This document shows, one piece after another, positions 2,453 to 48,837 of a stretch of DNA of 64,000 bases. The position numbers and the translations under genes were made by a program. Under the pieces are notes generated by a model, which was not told the DNA's origin, ran no database searches, and worked only from the letters and a program-made list of their open reading frames with translations. Positions within the stretch are counted from its first letter, which is position 1. Each line of letters opens with the position of its first letter. Source of the stretch: a virus. Taxonomy: Duplodnaviria > Caudoviricetes. The stretch is taken from IMG/VR virus record IMGVR_UViG_3300011871_000002, positions 154,702 through 218,701 of that record; one strand, written 5' to 3'.

Positions 2453-4123
2453 ATGAACATGAAGCAATACACCGATCTCGTTCGTAAGTGCCTGACCCAA
2501 GGCAACATCCGTACCGACCGCACCAATACCGGTACCATCTCCATCTTCGGTCCCCAGATGGAGTTCGACCTGTCCAAGGGCTTCCCGCTCGATACCGGCC
2601 GCCAGCTGTTCCTGCGTGGCATCCTCGAAGAAAACTTCTGGATGCTGCGCGGTTCGACCGACAACAACGAGTTGGTCGAGCGCCGGGTCCACATCTGGGA
2701 CGAGTGGTGCAATACCGAAGTCGAATTCGATGACGATTTTGATAGTCGTCCTATTGTCTACGTAGAGCCGCGCATTAAAGATTATACGTCATACTACAAA
2801 CCTGATTCTTCTGGCGTTTCGGCACCCAACGGAACAATTGATGATAAGCTCCGCTCACAATGGATCAAAATGATGGATCGTTGTTATAATCCGTCCGCAC
2901 ATAACTACAGGTACTACGGAGGTCGCAATATCTTCGTTGACGCGCGTTGGCATATTCTTCAAAATTTCATCAACGATGTAAAACAACTTCCCAACTGGAA
3001 GCACAAACTGGCAGACTGGAACAATTATAATCTCGACAAGGATTATTTTAGTTCCAACTGTTATTCCCGAGAAACTTGTTTGTGGCTCAGTAAGCAAGAA
3101 AACGGCATCTATGGTTCGACCAATAGTACCATTATTGTGGTATTCCCTAATGGACATGTTGAACTGTTTATCAGTGTTTCACAATGTGCCGAAGAGTTGG
3201 AGGTTTCGCGGAGTTCGGTACATCGTTTTACAAAAAGCGTACCTGAAGTTCTGAAAGGTGAAAATAAGAAACTTAAAGGCATTCGATTCGGTATTCTGAG
3301 TCAACCCTTCCGTTATGCAATTCCAAAAATTGGTGATCTCGGTCCTATTTATGGAAAACAGTGGCGTTTTTGGGGAGAAGAAAAAATCACCAAAGCTACT
3401 GTGTTGGAAATCGTCAACAGTAACCTCAATGACGAAGTTCAAATGTTTACCGAACTTAGTAATCTTTTCAAAAATAACGGTATTCATTATTATTCGATCG
3501 CGCAGCGTATCGGTATCGCCGAAGACATGCTGGCCGCTGGCGTGGCCGAGAAGTTCACCCAAGCTGATCTGGATGAATTGAAAGCGTATTGCCAAAATAC
3601 CCAAAGCGAAGAAGGCGCTGCACTTACTGCTTTCGGGAAAGAGCGCGTGAACATGCGCCTCGCCCGATTCGGCATCCCGAAAACGACTACCCGCCGCGCC
3701 ACCATCGACCAGATCACCAAGCTGATCGACGACTTGAAGAAGCGCCCCAACTCGCGCCGTCACGTGGTCTCGGCGTGGAATGTGGCTGCTCTGCCAGACG
3801 AGTCGCTCACGCCCCATCAGAACGTGATGGCTGGCAAGATGGCACTGGCGCCGTGCCACGCGCTGTTCCAGTTCTACGTGGAAGACCGCAGTATTCAGGA
3901 CATGGTCGCGGAACTGCCGGAAAACGTACAGCAGGAATTCAAGTGGTTTAAGAAGGACAACGACCTGATCCACCTCGCTCAGGACATGCTCAGCCTCGAT
4001 GCACTTCCGCAACCGGCGTACTACGAAGCGATGTTTAACTTCGAAAAGCGTGAAAAGCTGATGTCATTCTTCTCGGAGCGCGGCATCAAAACCAAGAAGC
4101 TCTCCTGCAAGCTGTACCAGCGT
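2453..4123 (+). CDS. thyA: Thymidylate synthase exon 1, containing in-frame HNH endonuclease insertion
   Basis: [41 protein letters not shown] (catalytic Cys), KLSCKLYQR; interrupted by intron after the CGT(Arg) codon. Confidence 0.95.
2708..3331 (+). mobile_element. HNH homing-endonuclease domain plus NUMOD1-like HTH fused in frame within thyA
   Basis: W..MMDRCY..YYGGRNI.V..RW..NF..D and LDKD..YSRETC.W..N motifs, then [21 protein letters not shown]; abrupt AT-rich composition; lies between IWDEW and GDLGP. Confidence 0.8.
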
Positions 4124-36178: not shown

Positions 36179-37513
36179 CTATTTGGCGTTGAAGATCATG
36201 CGCAGCGCCAGATACATGTTGTATTTGGCACCCTTGATCGAGCGAGCGACTTCGGCCTTAGCGGGGTTCTGGTAGCAGTGCACCAGATTGTTAAGGTACT
36301 GCTCGACTTGTTTCACGCCTGCGCGCACAGCAGCAGCGTCTTCGCTTGGCATCTCGTTATCGATCGTATCCACCAAACGCACCAGTGCTTCGGACGCTTT
36401 GGCGGCCTCGATCAGGAAACGGCGACCGTTGGTGATGTAGCTGTCCACGTTGTCGAGATAGGTGAAGCCAGCTTTAATGGCATCTCCGATTTCGTTCGTG
36501 GTCATCTTGATCTTGGCCGAGGCGACAAAGTTGGCGATCATGCCGACGTAACCCGTGCCGTTGGCTGCCACTTTCATGGCGGTGTGGGTCCACTTACCAA
36601 CTTCCACCACCGTATCGGGCGTGGCCAGTTCAGCCAGACGGGAACGTGCTTTACCACCGATCTCATTGACCCGGCGACGGTCGCCGCGTTTGACGGTCAA
36701 GCCAGTGACTGACAGATACGGGTGGCCACCGATGTAACTCTGGTTAAACAGCTGCGCACCCGTCTTGAGGCGCTCGACGTCCTGGAAGAACTTCTCGGCG
36801 TCTTTCAGCGTACGCAGCTTACCGGCGCGGATGATGGCACCGAGCTTGGCCACAGCGCCAATGACTTCACCGCTGTAAGTCTTGAGGATGTAGGTCGACA
36901 GTGCTACATCCTTGGCAATGGCTGAGGAGATGTCCTTGGTCTGGCCACGGTCGTTGCTGAAGTGGTACCATAGCTCCAGTAGGCTACCTTCGTGTTGGAC
37001 GTTTTCCCAGCTGCCGCTTTCCGTGCGGAATTCGCTTTCAGCATCGCTGAGCTTGTTGCGATACTTGCCGATCTGGCTGTGTGTTGAGCGGAAGAAGTCG
37101 GCCACGGCATTGAGACGGTGTTTGACGCCGAGCACGTTGGCTTGGTAATACTTGTTGAGGATGTCGCGAATGCCTTCGAGGGCGATTTCGTGCTGGCGGA
37201 CGATGTCCACGCCTTCCGATTCCAGGCTGACCGCATTGATCGGTGCGTGGATACGATTGAGCTGCTGCTCCACACCCAGACGCAAAGCAGTGAGCGTGCC
37301 TTCGCTGCAAGCATTGTTCTGGATCAGTGACTCGATGCACAGGGCGTAACCAGCGAGGTTTTCCATCACGACCGACATGCTTTGTTCGTCTTCGAACTCT
37401 GCATCCATGTCTTGGCTGACGCGACTGATGTCGTATTCAACACCGTCTTCCACGCCGCCTTCTGCTACTTCCGTAGCATCTCCTTCCAGCGCAAGACGAA
37501 GGTAATTGCTCAT
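36179..37513 (-). CDS. Virion inner-head protein (phiKZ head paralogue-family type)
   Basis: Acidic N-terminal propeptide with ALE/SLE prohead-protease sites (LALEG, VSLES, IALEG); TATG late-promoter-like motif upstream. Confidence 0.7.
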   Translation of the reverse strand: MSNYLRLALEGDATEVAEGGVEDGVEYDISRVSQDMDAEFEDEQSMSVVMENLAGYALCIESLIQNNACSEGTLTALRLGVEQQLNRIHAPINAVSLESEGVDIVRQHEIALEGIRDILNKYYQANVLGVKHRLNAVADFFRSTHSQIGKYRNKLSDAESEFRTESGSWENVQHEGSLLELWYHFSNDRGQTKDISSAIAKDVALSTYILKTYSGEVIGAVAKLGAIIRAGKLRTLKDAEKFFQDVERLKTGAQLFNQSYIGGHPYLSVTGLTVKRGDRRRVNEIGGKARSRLAELATPDTVVEVGKWTHTAMKVAANGTGYVGMIANFVASAKIKMTTNEIGDAIKAGFTYLDNVDSYITNGRRFLIEAAKASEALVRLVDTIDNEMPSEDAAAVRAGVKQVEQYLNNLVHCYQNPAKAEVARSIKGAKYNMYLALRMIFNAK

Positions 37514-37618
37514 GATAAAGCCTTTTTCAAGAGAGTAAATAAGAGAGTGTTACATATCTATTTTTTTCATCTTGCGGCATAAATAGCCACCCGCTTGGAT
37601 GGCTATTTACGATTGACG

Positions 37619-38398
37619 TCATCCTTTTGCCCACGTTGCCATGGGGTGGGCTTCTTCATGACTCAGAAGCGCTGCGCGCTGCAACTTCTCGCCCATGTAG
37701 TCGCCCTTGGTAATGGATTCGACCGTGAAGTCTTGATCGTGCTTCCAGCTTTCGGTGTTTTGATTGACCGTGCCCTGAATCTTCCAATATCCCTTCTTGA
37801 GGAAGATGTTCTTGGAGAACCACAGGCCACCATCCATGACGATTTCCACGAGCATGGTCAGTCGACCTTCAGGGAGCTTCTTGGTGCGCGAGCTAAACGT
37901 CATTTCGCTACAGAAGAATCGCCCCGCGGTCACAGGAATGAATTCCCGCGTCTCAGGACTATACGAAACCATCCAGTGCTCGTCGGTACTGGGCTGGTCG
38001 TACACCATCGACTTGTTGGGCCTGAGTGATGCTTGGCACGGCAAGGCGTAAATCTTGTACCCGCCTTTGTAGTCCTTCTCCGAAGCATCGGACGCATACT
38101 CGAAAAAGTCACCTTCTACCGCACCATAACCCAGCATACAGCCCAAGAGGGTCGGTGCCACATACACACGGGTAATGTCGCGACACTCTTGGGGCGAACC
38201 CCGCAGGGTGAGCTGCGGGATGAACTTGCGGATGTTGGTGTTGGTACTGATGTGGAGCTGGAAGTCGCCATAATATAGGCCACCAGCATCTCCAAGCTGT
38301 TTGACTAGATCTTCTGGCGTCACGACAGTTGTATTCTTCTGTACCCGAGCACTACAGTGCTCCAAATGTTTTTCTAGTTTCTCTCTTTCGGAATACAT
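37619..38398 (-). CDS. Conserved phiKZ-like hypothetical protein; 5' end apparently supplied by the endonuclease cassette
   Basis: HISTN...F.P....RV.VAPTL.GC..G motif; first ~40 codons AT-rich and duplicated at 39067-39198. Confidence 0.75.
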   Translation of the reverse strand: MYSEREKLEKHLEHCSARVQKNTTVVTPEDLVKQLGDAGGLYYGDFQLHISTNTNIRKFIPQLTLRGSPQECRDITRVYVAPTLLGCMLGYGAVEGDFFEYASDASEKDYKGGYKIYALPCQASLRPNKSMVYDQPSTDEHWMVSYSPETREFIPVTAGRFFCSEMTFSSRTKKLPEGRLTMLVEIVMDGGLWFSKNIFLKKGYWKIQGTVNQNTESWKHDQDFTVESITKGDYMGEKLQRAALLSHEEAHPMATWAKG

Positions 38399-38422
38399 AG
38401 TCTACCTTACTATTTTAACTTT

Positions 38423-39070
38423 ATGAAAAAACAACCTTGTGTTTACTTTATCCACGATACCACTGAAAAAATGCTTTACGTAGGCAGTACGCAGTGCTTA
38501 TCTCTCAGAATGAATGATCACAGAAGCCAGCTAAAAAACCAGAAACACTCAAATCCTCGGCTTCAAGAAGCACACAATAAAGGAAATAATTTTCGCATAG
38601 AACATGTTAATCTACCGGAAGGCATAAATCCGATTGATGCCGAACAAGTAATAATTGATGCCTTTCAGGGCGCAGGAATTTTGTACAACTACGGCACGGA
38701 TGCTTACGCGCCCAGTCGAGGAAGAAAACACGATGAAAAGTCTATACTTAAACAAAGAGAAAGAGCTTTGGAACGTTGGGGTGATCCAGAGGAAAGGATG
38801 AAACAGAGTGAGAGAATGATGGGAAGAGAATTACCAGAAAGTACTAAAAAAGCTATCTCTGAGGGAAAGATAAAACACGCTATGAATCTTTCTCAAGAAG
38901 AGAAAAAACAAATGACCTCAAAGGCGCACGAAGGAGCTAGAAAGAAAGTAATAGCGGACGGTATAACTTACAATAGTATCGGAGATGCTGCAATAGCGCA
39001 CAGCATCTCCGGAAGTACTGTTACTCATCGAATTAATAGCCCGACATTTCCAAATTGGCTTTTTGCTTAA
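38423..39070 (+). mobile_element. Free-standing GIY-YIG homing endonuclease (NUMOD3 + HTH tail)
   Basis: CVYFI......YVGST..L..R...H...L....H.N..LQ...E.....YN; AT-rich; opposite strand to neighbours. Confidence 0.88.
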
Positions 39071-39198
39071 TCGTACGCACCACCTGCATCCCCCAACTTC
39101 TCTACCAGGTCTTCTGGCGTGACCACCTGGGTATTGCGCTGTACCCGAGCACTACAGTGCTCCAAGTGGTCTTCTAGTTTTTTTCGTTCATTGGCCAT
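39067..39198 (-). pseudogene. Orphaned original 5' end (43 codons) of gene 37619-38398
   Basis: MANERKKLEDHLEHCSARVQRNTQVVTPEDLVEKLGDAGGAYD* vs MYSEREKLEKHLEHCSARVQKNTTVVTPEDLVKQLGDAGG. Confidence 0.85.
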
Positions 39199-39210
39199 CA
39201 TCTTTCCTAG

Positions 39211-40767
39211 TTACATGTCCATTGCCCAGGCGTGGTCGTCCGTGGCTTCTTCTGATCCGAGCGGACTACCGCCAACACGGGTGAGCGTGCTGTCCGCTTT
39301 ACCAAAGTCGTCGCGCAAACCACCGATGGGGTGGAAGGCGAGCACCACATGATGGAATTCTTCCGGCAGTGGGATGTTCACGCGCTGCTTACCGCGCTGG
39401 ATGGTCAGATACGAGCGGCCATTGAACTTTTCGATGTGGATGAAGATCTCGCAATCGAATTCGTTGTCGAGCGATGCGCAACCTTTGTAGTAACCCTTGC
39501 CAACCATCTCCTTGACAAATCCGGTTTGCGAGACACGCAGGATGTTACGCTTGGCATCGGTCGAGATCTGGTGCGGGGTGATCAGGGTGATTTTACGGGT
39601 GTTGCAAAATTCACGCATGCGCGCGAACATGTCTTGCATGTCGCCACCGGCAACGCCACCACCGAAGCAACCGATGGCTGGGACCAGACCCAGATAGTCG
39701 AGGACGAGCGCATGGATTTCATAACCCATCGACTCGTACTTGATGACTTCATTACAGATGTCGCGGTACGTCATCTGCTTGGCCTTCATCCTGGCCATCT
39801 TGACGTTGTAGCCGTTGACCTTCATCTTGTCACGGACATACTCGGCAATTTGGCGCGGCGTCAAGTCCTGCATATTGGCGCGCTGACCCGTTTCGTTCTC
39901 GTACAGCGACATGTACAGGAACTCGTAGTTCTTCTCCAGCGTGTCTTCAAACGAGATGCGCAGAATGAGTGGCTTCTTCTCTGCGTTGAACATGAAGGGC
40001 TTGTTGTACAGCGCAATGTGCTTCATCAGGTTCAGCGTGAAACCCGTTTTGAAGTTGTGTTGCAGCGCTGCAATACACACAAGGTCGCCACGACGCATGC
40101 CACCTGAGAGCATGCGGTTCACGCCCTGCCAGCCAGTCTTGAGAAGCGACTCGCCGCTTTCTTCTTTCTGTACCTGTTCAGCAACGCGCGCCATGTCCTC
40201 GATATTGTCGAGGTCAATGCAGTCCACCATCGCCGGGTTCTTCGCATCGTCACCCGCTACGGTATAGGGATCGAGCTGGGCTTGCAGCTCTTGCAGGTAC
40301 TTGGACCAGTTGGTGATCTTGGTTGGTTCAAACTTGGCCGTGTAGGCGGCCTTTTGCAGAATTTCCTGTGACTTCTCAAACGAGAGAAAGTCGTTGAGTT
40401 TGCGTTCCAAGTTCCGGCAAGTGCGGTGCAAGGTTTTCTCATCGAGATCGACTTCGATACCATCACGCAGTGCTTCGTATGAGATGTTGTCTTCTCGTAC
40501 GTTCATGCGCAGCGTTTGCAGCACCTCCATGACTTCGTAACGGTGTTCTACTGGGTCATTGCACATCATCAGGGCGGTGTTCTTCAAGCCCTGGATAATG
40601 TCACGTTCGCCTTCAATACCCAAGCTAATCTCGGGCAGCTTGATACGTTCGAGGATATCGCGCACCAATTGGGATGATTTTTCTGCCACCATTACGTTTC
40701 CATCGTTGAGCTGGCTTTGGCGATACAGGAGAGTGATGCAGGTAACGAGGAGAAGTTTATTGTTCAT
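39211..40767 (-). CDS. DnaB-like replicative helicase (phiKZ gp118-like)
   Basis: KTGWQGVNRML.GG.RRG, ALQHNFKTG (deviant Walker A), ISFED, LDYL, ITPHQIS, IQRGK. Confidence 0.88.
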   Translation of the reverse strand: MNNKLLLVTCITLLYRQSQLNDGNVMVAEKSSQLVRDILERIKLPEISLGIEGERDIIQGLKNTALMMCNDPVEHRYEVMEVLQTLRMNVREDNISYEALRDGIEVDLDEKTLHRTCRNLERKLNDFLSFEKSQEILQKAAYTAKFEPTKITNWSKYLQELQAQLDPYTVAGDDAKNPAMVDCIDLDNIEDMARVAEQVQKEESGESLLKTGWQGVNRMLSGGMRRGDLVCIAALQHNFKTGFTLNLMKHIALYNKPFMFNAEKKPLILRISFEDTLEKNYEFLYMSLYENETGQRANMQDLTPRQIAEYVRDKMKVNGYNVKMARMKAKQMTYRDICNEVIKYESMGYEIHALVLDYLGLVPAIGCFGGGVAGGDMQDMFARMREFCNTRKITLITPHQISTDAKRNILRVSQTGFVKEMVGKGYYKGCASLDNEFDCEIFIHIEKFNGRSYLTIQRGKQRVNIPLPEEFHHVVLAFHPIGGLRDDFGKADSTLTRVGGSPLGSEEATDDHAWAMDM

Positions 40768-45253: not shown

Positions 45254-46915
45254 GTGTTGGATTCCATGATCGATGACGAATTTTCACGCTTGGTGGACCA
45301 GTCCACCGTGAGGATCAATCCCTTGATCGGGGATGGCTTGGCCATGGTACACGTACCACAGGCGGCAACGTATATCGAAAAGGCATTCCTGTCGGTGAGT
45401 TCAGACTTCCCGGCCTGCGTGCGTTTCGGGGGCGGGGAACCGTGTGATCCGATGGATGAATTCATCGAGCAGACAAAACGGCGTCAGAACAAGGCCGGCA
45501 AGCAAGGTAGCCGGCGCAGTTACGATATCTCGACATCGAACCTGTACATGATGCGCTACAAGTTCTGGTATCGTGATGGTGGCCGGGAAACTGAACTCGA
45601 TTCGCGTTACATCTTCCTGCCCTATGTGGAAGACGCTGGCGTTATCACCATCAGTGGTAGCCGCTGGGTGATTTCCCCGGTCTTGATTGACCGGGTGATT
45701 TCGGTCGGGCTGTCGAACGTGTTCGTGCAGCTCAACAAGACTCGCCTGATCTTCAAACGCATGCCGCACCGCGTGATGATCGATGGTGGTGAAGAATCGG
45801 TCCAGGTGGTGTGGGCCAAGGTGCACCAAGGTAATCGTACCCACAAAACATCGCGGGCAGTGACGACCATGATGCATTACTTGCTGTGCAAGTATGGTTT
45901 CAGTGAAACCTTCTCGCGCTTCGGTAACTGCCATCCGGTGGTCTTGAAGGACGATACCGACATGACCATGTTCCCGAGCGAAGAATGGGCAATCGTGCAA
46001 AGTAGTGCGATCAAGCTGAAGAAGGCTGGCCGGGCGCACTACGAGCGTTCCAACGTGCGCTTGGCTATCCCGCGTTCCCAGATGACCCAAAAGGTGGTCT
46101 CGATGTTGGGTGGCCTGTTCTACGTGATCGACCACTTCCCGCTGCGTGCCATGGCCGAGAGCATGAACTCGAAGCGGATGTGGATGATTCTCCTGGGCGA
46201 ACTCATTCCGGGCGAATCGGATCACGCTGGCGTCTTGTTCGAGGAAGCTGAAAAGCACTTGCGTTCGCTCGACAAGTACATCGACATGCTGACCGATGAG
46301 CGGCTCAAGAATATCGGCATGCCGGTCGAAAACATTTACGAGTTGTTCTCGATCATCATCGGGAAATACAACGAGTGGCTGCTCTCGGGCTCGGAGCGGG
46401 TGGCCAGTATGTACGACAAGGAGTTTAGCATCTTGCCGTTCGTGCTGTACAACATCGTTTCGGCCATTAACAACCTGTACTTCCGCCTGAAGGCCGCTGA
46501 AGAGAAAGCCTTGAAGGCAGGTAAGAAACTGACGCCGGAGAATATCAACGGCATCACGTTCGACCTGCTCAAGACGGGCCTCATCTTCAACATCAACAAG
46601 GGTCACGGCGAAGTGTCCACCATTAGCTGCCCTGGTGACAACAAGGCATTCAAGACAACTGCGGTGCTGGTCTCGCAAACCAACTCCAACAACCAGTCGT
46701 CGAGTCGTGATCGGGCCGGGACCAAAGACCCGCAGCGCTTCTTGCATTCGAGTATTGCAGAAGTCGGCGGTGCATGGAACCTGCCCAAGAGCGATCCTTA
46801 CGGTAAAGCTCGTGTCAACCCAACGGTGAAGATGGATGCCAACTGGGTGGTCGAAAGAAGGCCTGAATTCATCGACCTGCTGGACGATATCCAGAACAAG
46901 ATCCGTCGTCGTTAA
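45254..46915 (+). CDS. Non-virion RNA polymerase beta-like subunit (phiKZ gp123-like)
   Basis: IFLPYV..AG.I.ISGS.W.ISPVL.D.VIS; H.S..EVG....LPKS.P.G..R.NP; synteny. Confidence 0.85.
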   Translation: MLDSMIDDEFSRLVDQSTVRINPLIGDGLAMVHVPQAATYIEKAFLSVSSDFPACVRFGGGEPCDPMDEFIEQTKRRQNKAGKQGSRRSYDISTSNLYMMRYKFWYRDGGRETELDSRYIFLPYVEDAGVITISGSRWVISPVLIDRVISVGLSNVFVQLNKTRLIFKRMPHRVMIDGGEESVQVVWAKVHQGNRTHKTSRAVTTMMHYLLCKYGFSETFSRFGNCHPVVLKDDTDMTMFPSEEWAIVQSSAIKLKKAGRAHYERSNVRLAIPRSQMTQKVVSMLGGLFYVIDHFPLRAMAESMNSKRMWMILLGELIPGESDHAGVLFEEAEKHLRSLDKYIDMLTDERLKNIGMPVENIYELFSIIIGKYNEWLLSGSERVASMYDKEFSILPFVLYNIVSAINNLYFRLKAAEEKALKAGKKLTPENINGITFDLLKTGLIFNINKGHGEVSTISCPGDNKAFKTTAVLVSQTNSNNQSSSRDRAGTKDPQRFLHSSIAEVGGAWNLPKSDPYGKARVNPTVKMDANWVVERRPEFIDLLDDIQNKIRRR

Positions 46916-46941
46916 TTAAACCAAGAAAGAGGAAAAAGACT

Positions 46942-48837
46942 ATGTTTAATCAAAACCAAGGACTGCCTGTTGACCCGTTCAAACAGCAGTTCCAGTTCAT
47001 GAACGTCAACCCGAACATGCCGCCCTACGTGCCGAGCATTGTGGCGCCGGCACAGTCGGTACAGCAGTACATGGCGTACATCTCGGGTATCCTGGCCATC
47101 AAGGTCCAGCAAAACGCCCAGCAGAACCCGCTGCGCATGTTCCTGTTCAACATGGCTGCGCAAAACGGCTTCCAGAACCAGTACTTCGATTCGATGGCGA
47201 TCATGGCTATTCGCCTGACCGCGTATGTGATGGCGGTGCAGCGCGCCAATATCGAATCGGCCGCTGACAGCGCATGCAGCACCATCTGCGACTACTACGC
47301 GGCGGCCAACGTGCGCAGCTGGCCGGCACTGGACAAGTTGATCGACGACCAGGGTGTCCGCAACGGCGTGTACCAGACGGTGCAGGAATTCGATGCAGTC
47401 ACTGCTGAACTGGATCGCTTCAACACACCTGCAAATACCGGTATGGGCATGGGTGGTGGCGCCATCAGCTGGTCGGGCAACAGTGGTGGCAGCAGCTTCA
47501 CGGGTGGCTCGTCCTATGCCAGCGGCGTGACTACCGGCAGTACGCCCGCCAGCAGCTTCTCGACGGCGCTGACCTCCCATACCGGCACCAATGCTGGTAC
47601 GATGTCGCAATGGGGCGCGGCTGCCATGGCGGAGCAGCAAGCCGCGCCAGTGGCGACTGTCGAGCAAGCAGCACCGAAGGCAGAACCCGTGCAGGAAACG
47701 CTGCCAGCACACACCTTCAACTGGCGCCCGAACCTGCTGACCGAGCCGTACTTCTACGCGTACAACCCGAGCGAATGGGATGCACGCCTCATGGTCCAGG
47801 CCGACGGCACCACCACCCCAGACTACCACCGGATCGACAACACCGCCATGGAATACGACAAACACCGCACCCCTTCCGCACTCGGCAAACTGCCGTCCTT
47901 CCTCGACCTGTCCAGCGCCGCCAAAACCATGGAACGCATCGGCGCCGGCATCGCGCAACTGAACGGCGAACTGATCGAAGACGACGTCAATGAAAACGTC
48001 ACCACCGTCAAGACCACCGTCTGCGATGAATGGCTGATGGCCAACAGCGAAGCCGGTGCGTGGATGCAGGCCAGCCTCAAGCGCCTGCAACTGACGCCAG
48101 GTGACGATGGCCTGCCGGGCGTGTATCGTGTCTATACGCGTGTCGTCGACGCTGTGCTGACCGACAACGACGAAACGCTCAACATGGACATGCTGCTCAA
48201 GTGCAAGTCCTTCACGGGCCTGCGTGAACGCATGCATGGCCTGGGTGGTGAGCTGTCGATGGCCCTGTTCAACGCCATCAACGAACGCATGACGAATCTC
48301 ATCAATCGCAAGATCCAGATGGAACTCGGCCTGCGCAAGGTGACGATCGACAGCTTCTACGACGACATCGGCGACACCATCGACTACTTCGACAAGACCA
48401 AGCAGTACGGTCCGGTGATCAAGTCGGCATTTCTGAAGAACCAGGAATTCGACATCGCCGTCACGCTCCAGCAGCTGAGCAAGGAAACGGCGGCAGCCGA
48501 AGCCGATGTGATCCTGGCAGGCATGAAGTTCACGGACAGCAACCGTCCCAACATTTCCTTCCTGTCGACCAACTATAGCCTGACCTACCTCGACTGCCTG
48601 TCGTGGGAACTGAACGTCGAGTTCGGTGGCGACATTCCGGTCAAGCTGGCGATGGAAACCGTGCCGATGTTCTACCACCTGGTCAAGGCTGCCTTCGAGG
48701 ACGCCGACAACCTCGCGTCGAAGTCGCGTACGCTGGCGATCGGCCGCGTCATGATGCGCACCAAGGATGGCCGGGTGTTCGAGTGCACCCGCGGTGCGCT
48801 GGCTGACGAAGCCTACCTGATCACCCTGGTCAAGTAA
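46942..48837 (+). CDS. Conserved phiKZ-like hypothetical protein
   Basis: 631 aa with Gly/Ser linker, MEYDKH and DSFYDD motifs; follows the nvRNAP subunit. Confidence 0.75.
   Translation: MFNQNQGLPVDPFKQQFQFMNVNPNMPPYVPSIVAPAQSVQQYMAYISGILAIKVQQNAQQNPLRMFLFNMAAQNGFQNQYFDSMAIMAIRLTAYVMAVQRANIESAADSACSTICDYYAAANVRSWPALDKLIDDQGVRNGVYQTVQEFDAVTAELDRFNTPANTGMGMGGGAISWSGNSGGSSFTGGSSYASGVTTGSTPASSFSTALTSHTGTNAGTMSQWGAAAMAEQQAAPVATVEQAAPKAEPVQETLPAHTFNWRPNLLTEPYFYAYNPSEWDARLMVQADGTTTPDYHRIDNTAMEYDKHRTPSALGKLPSFLDLSSAAKTMERIGAGIAQLNGELIEDDVNENVTTVKTTVCDEWLMANSEAGAWMQASLKRLQLTPGDDGLPGVYRVYTRVVDAVLTDNDETLNMDMLLKCKSFTGLRERMHGLGGELSMALFNAINERMTNLINRKIQMELGLRKVTIDSFYDDIGDTIDYFDKTKQYGPVIKSAFLKNQEFDIAVTLQQLSKETAAAEADVILAGMKFTDSNRPNISFLSTNYSLTYLDCLSWELNVEFGGDIPVKLAMETVPMFYHLVKAAFEDADNLASKSRTLAIGRVMMRTKDGRVFECTRGALADEAYLITLVK

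Follow-up and report, generated by a model that had tools for sequence, protein, structure and literature searches.

How can an endonuclease gene lie inside a protein-coding gene without breaking it? The question is raised by a locus in the window analysed here, the final 64 kb of a 218.7-kb contig from a phiKZ-like jumbo phage (phiKZ-like traits in the window include the major capsid protein, PF25620, and a divergent DnaB helicase, PF20307). The DnaB-like replicative helicase gene (39211-40767, minus strand; E = 6e-120 to PF20307) forms the upstream flank of an operon and is followed by a gene of phrog_5043, here called gene X. This family is annotated as having an unknown function, and 61 phage records contain relatives, among them FLC9, Noxifer, RAY, Goslar and PCH45. 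An earlier sequence-only reading of the locus had described a stub of the gene, an antisense GIY-YIG gene and an intact open reading frame; all three are present, at the coordinates that follow.

The stub, on the minus strand, consists of the original codons 1-43 of gene X (39067-39198). It retains the native ribosome-binding site (RBS; AGGA, 39205-39208, minus strand), which now drives the stub, and an in-frame ATG at 39201 would lengthen it by one codon. Its TAA overlaps the stop codon of the endonuclease gene within the palindrome TTAA (39067-39070). This gene (38423-39070, plus strand, antisense to gene X) encodes a free-standing, I-TevI-like GIY-YIG protein of 215 aa and has a GC content of 0.405. 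A 24-bp AT-rich spacer (38399-38422, minus strand) separates its start from a second, divergent start, that of another copy of codons 1-45 of gene X (38264-38398, minus strand), hereafter the head. The head is joined to the native core, codons 46-259 (37619-38263, minus strand), and the rebuilt open reading frame (38398-37619, minus strand) runs uninterrupted for 259 aa. A candidate RBS (AAGGT, 38408-38404) lies 5 nt ahead of its ATG and plausibly serves the rebuilt gene.

A protein search returned a protein (P0001) that begins with the residues of the stub; this 258-aa protein is 94% identical to the rebuilt one. In the corresponding contig (L005), the helicase gene and gene X lie 12 bp apart with no endonuclease between them, and the gene start is present as a single copy. 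Residues 1-40 of the stub are identical there and are fused straight to the core. L005 is 96% identical to the window across the helicase and stub (95.8% nucleotide identity for the helicase), and the bases of the native RBS are the same in both. The sequence-only reading had predicted just such an endonuclease-free relative, with the stub joined directly to the core. It had placed the join below about 38280; the join itself is confirmed, while the position shifts slightly, as ungapped comparison with L005 shows native sequence through codon 43 (ending at 39070) and again from codon 46 (38263). These junctions delimit a putative mobile cassette of 806 bp (38264-39069) replacing 6 bp (native codons 44-45). 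Within the coding sequence, this cassette of endonuclease, RBS and foreign codons leaves a stub and rebuilds a full-length open reading frame.

The stub and L005 share 89.9% nucleotide identity and 42 of 43 amino acids, with ten synonymous codon differences and one amino-acid change, a pattern that fits recent death. Gene X also directly follows the helicase, with no space for an endonuclease, in nine further lineages (L001, L002, L006, L035, L037, L038, L039, L125 and L126), giving ten empty lineages against two occupied ones (the second is described below). As the earlier reading had anticipated, no endonuclease-free relative with two copies of the gene start was found among the loci screened. 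It had also raised the possibility of an assembly artefact. This is ruled out by an independent assembler, since the Logan assembly L040 (SRR1749289, maybe from the same sample) is 100% identical over 7482 bp. The stub and head match at 77% over 110 nt, 800 bp apart (blastn, E = 6e-16, genome-wide), and form the strongest short-range repeat of the 218.7-kb genome. They share an identical 27-nt tract, which hints at some gene conversion or re-copying between them.

The head has a different history from the rest of the gene. It shares only 65.9% of nucleotides and 34 of 45 amino acids with the L005 allele, compared with 93.9% nucleotide identity in the core, and the break in identity is sharp at codon 45/46 (Fisher p = 1e-16). 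In a 120-nt comparison, its identity is 74% with the stub, 70% with L005 and 53-68% with other species. Because it is as far from the stub and L005 as other species are, sequence comparison identifies it as a foreign homologous allele from the same clade, not a recent copy. A recent tandem duplication of the host's own gene start was considered and rejected, as the head has diverged far more than this phage has from L005. The proposal of a recoded N-terminus thus stands as far as a diverged, AT-rich copy is concerned; purely synonymous recoding does not, given that the 45 codons differ from L005 by 11 amino-acid changes as well as 18 synonymous ones.

Composition also sets the head apart. Its GC content is 0.44, and its GC3 of 0.38 is the lowest among the first 45 codons of 106 host-like genes (mean 0.65, sd 0.09), although the difference from the empty allele's head alone (0.58) is not significant (p = 0.09). 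The endonuclease gene has a GC3 of 0.34 and the core 0.71. This shared AT-rich codon use suggests that head and endonuclease travelled together. No donor of the head can be named, as an 81-nt tree was unresolved within the host clade.

The endonuclease itself appears to be intact. Its product matches both PF01541 and PF20987 above the Pfam cut-offs, with the latter (I-TevI_DNA-bd, residues 172-214, E = 3.5e-8) forming a C-terminal DNA-binding module. The catalytic positions are intact, and Y8, Y19, G21, R29, H33, H42, E74 and N89 are invariant among ten relatives. There is a weak match to the I-TevI structures 1mk0 and 1i3j, in which R29 aligns with R27 of I-TevI; the first GIY-YIG motif reads CVY, both here and in its closest relative (P0053). 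The domain, the DNA-binding module and the optional presence opposite an empty allele together place it with the I-TevI-like GIY-YIG endonucleases. No clear RBS precedes the gene, and the search for a promoter was negative, with a sigma-70 scan performing at chance level. An imperfect inverted repeat with 28-nt arms (75% matching) lies near its 3' end (38963-39028).

I-TevI favours the motif CNNNG, nicking after positions 2 and 4 (PMC12774661). The empty allele has two CNNNG motifs at codons 41-44, and both are gone from the stub and head. In one of them, CGATG, the position-4 nick falls exactly on the left junction. We regard this as a suggestive lead to the cut site; the match is post hoc, is expected by chance at about 7% of positions, and is not visible at the junction of the second carrier, where the true empty allele is missing.

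What kind of gene is being targeted? The gene X product has no Pfam match, and a Foldseek search with it gave no significant match. The structure model of residues 40-192 has a pLDDT of 90, and its top 50 structural matches are nearly all ADP-ribosyltransferase (ART) folds, but with Z scores of only 3.1-6.3 (the best match is 1s21; Z 6.3, rmsd 3.5, 80 residues aligned). The nearest family according to Atlas features is Arr (0.93). Judging from the model, the product is probably ART-like in fold, from the strand carrying His49 onwards. The cassettes land in the most variable segment of this protein, which lies before the core and shows 48% identity, compared with 73% and 84% in the flanking parts. 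Between the motifs TPED and LHIS (38258-38308 in the window, and homologs), this segment has a short form of 6 aa and a long form of 15-17 aa, and the two forms do not track the core tree: the short L002 falls among long forms, and the long L008 is sister to the short L035. These scattered forms are possibly scars of cassette gain and loss.

Some variation is also seen downstream of gene X. An inverted repeat 3' of the gene (37580-37609, minus strand), spotted by eye and not called by the terminator scan, possibly marks where the helicase operon transcript ends. In several relatives (L002, L006 and L038), but not here, the end of gene X is overlapped by a GNAT acetyltransferase gene. The next gene in the window (36179-37513) encodes a 444-aa phiKZ internal head protein (PF12699), and its similarity to L005 is lost over much of its length while the flanks are 86-88% alike. 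Variability of the gene itself or a second boundary of exchange may account for this.

To find out whether the arrangement is unique, the endonuclease was compared with 1.84 billion representative proteins. The best relative (P0053, 37% identity, E = 1e-35; the next is at E = 1e-24) is located in gene X of a distantly related jumbo phage, on 23 contigs, and the locus is nearly invariant among the four contigs compared. This phage and ours are 59% identical in the helicase and 55% in gene X. Its locus (L008) repeats the architecture: behind the helicase lies a stub of 30 codons whose final GAT TAG overlaps the stop codon of the endonuclease gene, and a new start of gene X follows, with a head that is 68% identical to the stub. 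Here, too, an empty relative is matched more closely by the stub (77%) than by the head (67%), and GC3 is 0.52 in the head, 0.50 in the endonuclease gene and 0.67 in the core. Its own empty allele was not found, the nearest being 68% identical in amino acids. Each head is more similar to its own host clade than to the head of the other cassette, and in the tree the L008 head groups with its clade (support 96/95), apart from the head studied here. Both stubs end ahead of LHIS, the first conserved motif of the core, at a distance of five codons here and seven in L008, provided that the L008 recipient had the short form.

Searches for additional carriers returned none. A word-based protein search recovered only the enzyme itself, and scans of viral contigs with the enzyme, an alignment of the two enzymes and a DNA pattern found no further cases. 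Scans with alignments of the target gene and helicase gave only empty or unrelated loci, and a search of genome contigs was empty. Repeat and profile searches found no duplicated gene start for P0054 or for a GIY-YIG gene that follows the helicase in L107. The L107 gene (5075-5728), in a distant jumbo phage, is antisense, 29% identical to the one studied here and directly adjacent to the helicase; its locus has neither gene X nor a visible stub.

The best explanation, which we consider probable on the sequence comparisons above, is a splicing-free homing cassette dedicated to a single phage gene. During co-infection, the enzyme would cut an empty allele near codons 42-44, just ahead of the conserved core. 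The left broken end could then pair with helicase and stub of the donor, which are about 96% alike, and the right end with the donor's core. Repair would copy the cassette in as happens with mobile introns, except that no splicing would be involved. The junction would split the target site, leaving the stub without its 3' half and the rebuilt gene with a 5' half only about 56-60% alike. As a result, a carrier should be immune, and cleavage resistance of the new allele, as the earlier reading also supposed, is plausible. Divergence of the head would additionally restrain loss of the cassette through recombination between stub and head. The stub would be renewed from each recipient, which would explain why it looks freshly dead, while the head would move with the endonuclease. 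The element probably arose from an endonuclease upstream of a foreign allele that was repaired into gene X through homology at just one of its ends, and T4 offers a precedent for such one-sided illegitimate repair (PMC2988022).

Several observations speak against a homing cassette: the two known carriers, each close to a single genotype, are the only occupied lineages, their stubs end at different codons (43 and 30), the endonuclease gene lacks a clear RBS and a recognised promoter, and the identical 27-nt tract suggests some re-copying between stub and head. The two loci might instead be one-off accidents, in which a free-standing endonuclease normally resides between the helicase and a foreign allele, and illegitimate repair on the left occurred twice independently. 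The stub would then be a scar and the layout not a spreading unit. Illegitimate one-sided junctions are documented (PMC2988022), both stubs look recently dead as well as differing in length, both heads are foreign, and such an event is also the likely origin under the homing cassette explanation. However, no stub-less donor, with the endonuclease upstream of the gene, occurs among the screened loci, and both carriers share the stub and the overlapping stop codons, a repetition unexpected by chance. We therefore think that two separate accidents are unlikely.

A function for the stub is less likely still. The stub could couple translation to the helicase, control read-through over the antisense endonuclease gene or yield a 43-aa peptide that is put to use. 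It has kept its RBS, both stubs are in frame up to the junction, and one amino-acid change against ten synonymous ones departs from neutrality (p ~5e-5). However, a recent insertion gives the same counts, because the changes would have arisen while the codons belonged to a whole gene. The unequal lengths of the two stubs, and the complete N-terminus that the rebuilt gene already has, also argue against this view, leaving it with a very small probability. Phage endonucleases often reside in group I introns, so the stub might instead be exon 1 of an unrecognised intron or bypass element. We find this scarcely credible. There is no Rfam match of note, and no ribozyme core or protein-splicing domain was found around the endonuclease. 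The 806 bp are taken up by the endonuclease gene, the 24-bp spacer and the coding head, with no room for a ribozyme core. The endonuclease gene is also antisense and out of the host frame, and a second complete head would be needless. The sequence-only reading had likewise proposed repair without intron or intein, and its interpretation as a whole is supported.

Whether the homing cassette belongs to something broader is more doubtful. It is conceivable that a GIY-YIG lineage specialised on the ART-fold gene X makes up a separate class of jumbo-phage "head-swap" elements, intron-like but splicing-free, with repeated gain and later loss through recombination between stub and head that leaves the foreign head behind. 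Such a history would explain both the variable segment before the core and the scattered short and long forms, but we hold it only tentatively.

Elsewhere in the genome, one locus looks like a mirror-image, 3' version of the cassette, judging from its layout. At 116443-118864 of the full contig (G000:C1; L121), an RNA polymerase subunit gene (phrog_2962) ends in KFDWQNDIF and is followed by an HNH endonuclease gene and then by an orphan KFDWQKDIF with a stop codon (25/30 nt). A relative (L123) has a similar HNH gene at the same place, where the orphan is represented by its last three codons alone. A search for a close empty allele of this locus was negative, so either copy may be the native one. 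The genome also contains two more GIY-YIG genes, another HNH gene and one more open reading frame that are AT-rich (G000:C1:51669-52559, 87561-88271, 46709-47710 and 72905-74077), none of which has a duplicated gene end alongside. In the window, a further AT-rich stretch (about 2800-3550) lies within a 559-aa thymidylate-synthase-like open reading frame. A 70-100-bp intergenic repeat occurs three times ahead of gene starts (G000:C1:902-969, 110253-110354 and 205592-205703); its copies have a core in common and are probably early promoters, and a self-blastn found none in the cassette.

If the homing cassette explanation is right, such elements add to introns and inteins a third means by which a homing endonuclease can reside inside a protein-coding gene without breaking it. 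As a by-product, the N-terminus of a conserved phage protein is swapped between species. There are also practical consequences, as gene callers will list the stub as a small gene in its own right, and phylogenies of gene X will blend two histories. This is not a new kind of system, since the principle is already known from fungal mitochondria (at 3' ends) and partly from MobA of T4. It is, however, an unusually clean case: the empty allele is 96% identical, the junctions are mapped to the base, and there are both a second lineage and a candidate motif for the cut.

The sequence-only reading had likened the cassette to integrative elements that target tRNA genes and restore them. The outcome is indeed similar, but not the mechanism: besides the head, the GIY-YIG protein is the only coding content, so there is no integrase, and there is no identical att core, as the repeats match at 77% and two codons are lost. 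A closer parallel is the intronless homing of the T4 seg genes (PMC2988022), where free-standing I-TevI-like GIY-YIG endonucleases also lie beside conserved genes and carry part of a foreign allele. However, the seg genes lie between other genes, and their products cut at a distance of hundreds to thousands of bp from the insertion site, while here the insertion is within the open reading frame and cutting is predicted at the junction, as with an intron. Short gene remnants beside phage endonucleases have also been described in HEG-islands, where they were proposed as recombination substrates for homing (Barth et al., PMC10055350), although with no junction-level model of stub and head and no base-mapped empty allele.

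MobA of T4-like phages, which is found in the topoisomerase gene 39/60, is likewise a phage cassette without intron or intein that recurs near one site, deletes few native codons and supplies a diverged homologous region. There, the replacement region is 67-81% identical and closer to its own host clade than to other cassettes, and polymorphisms alone failed to block nicking (10.1101/2022.08.31.505936). MobA differs in being an HNH endonuclease, in splitting the protein in two with novel extensions and in its use of ribosomal bypass, whereas the cassette described here has a GIY-YIG endonuclease, duplicates the whole N-terminus and yields one full-length protein with no bypass. With most subscription journals lying outside our search, we found no description of a 5'-end version in phages.

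A close likeness is seen in fungal mitochondria, where endonuclease genes create hybrids in atp6 of Allomyces macrogynus and in atp6, atp9, cox2 and nad3 of Glomus (PMC3630166). In these hybrids, too, an endonuclease has inserted into a coding sequence without an intron, and the homologous gene end that it brings is foreign and fused in frame. The native end that was displaced is 91-98% identical to an empty-allele relative and the carried end 64-81% (PMC3630166), and our locus shows the same order, with the displaced stub (89.9%) closer to the empty allele than the carried head (65.9%). The fungal insertions replace the 3' end and hence the C-terminus, with the endonuclease following it, whereas in this jumbo phage the 5' end is replaced, with its own RBS and an antisense endonuclease. 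By analogy, the logic of the cassette is the mirror image of the Allomyces atp6 type.
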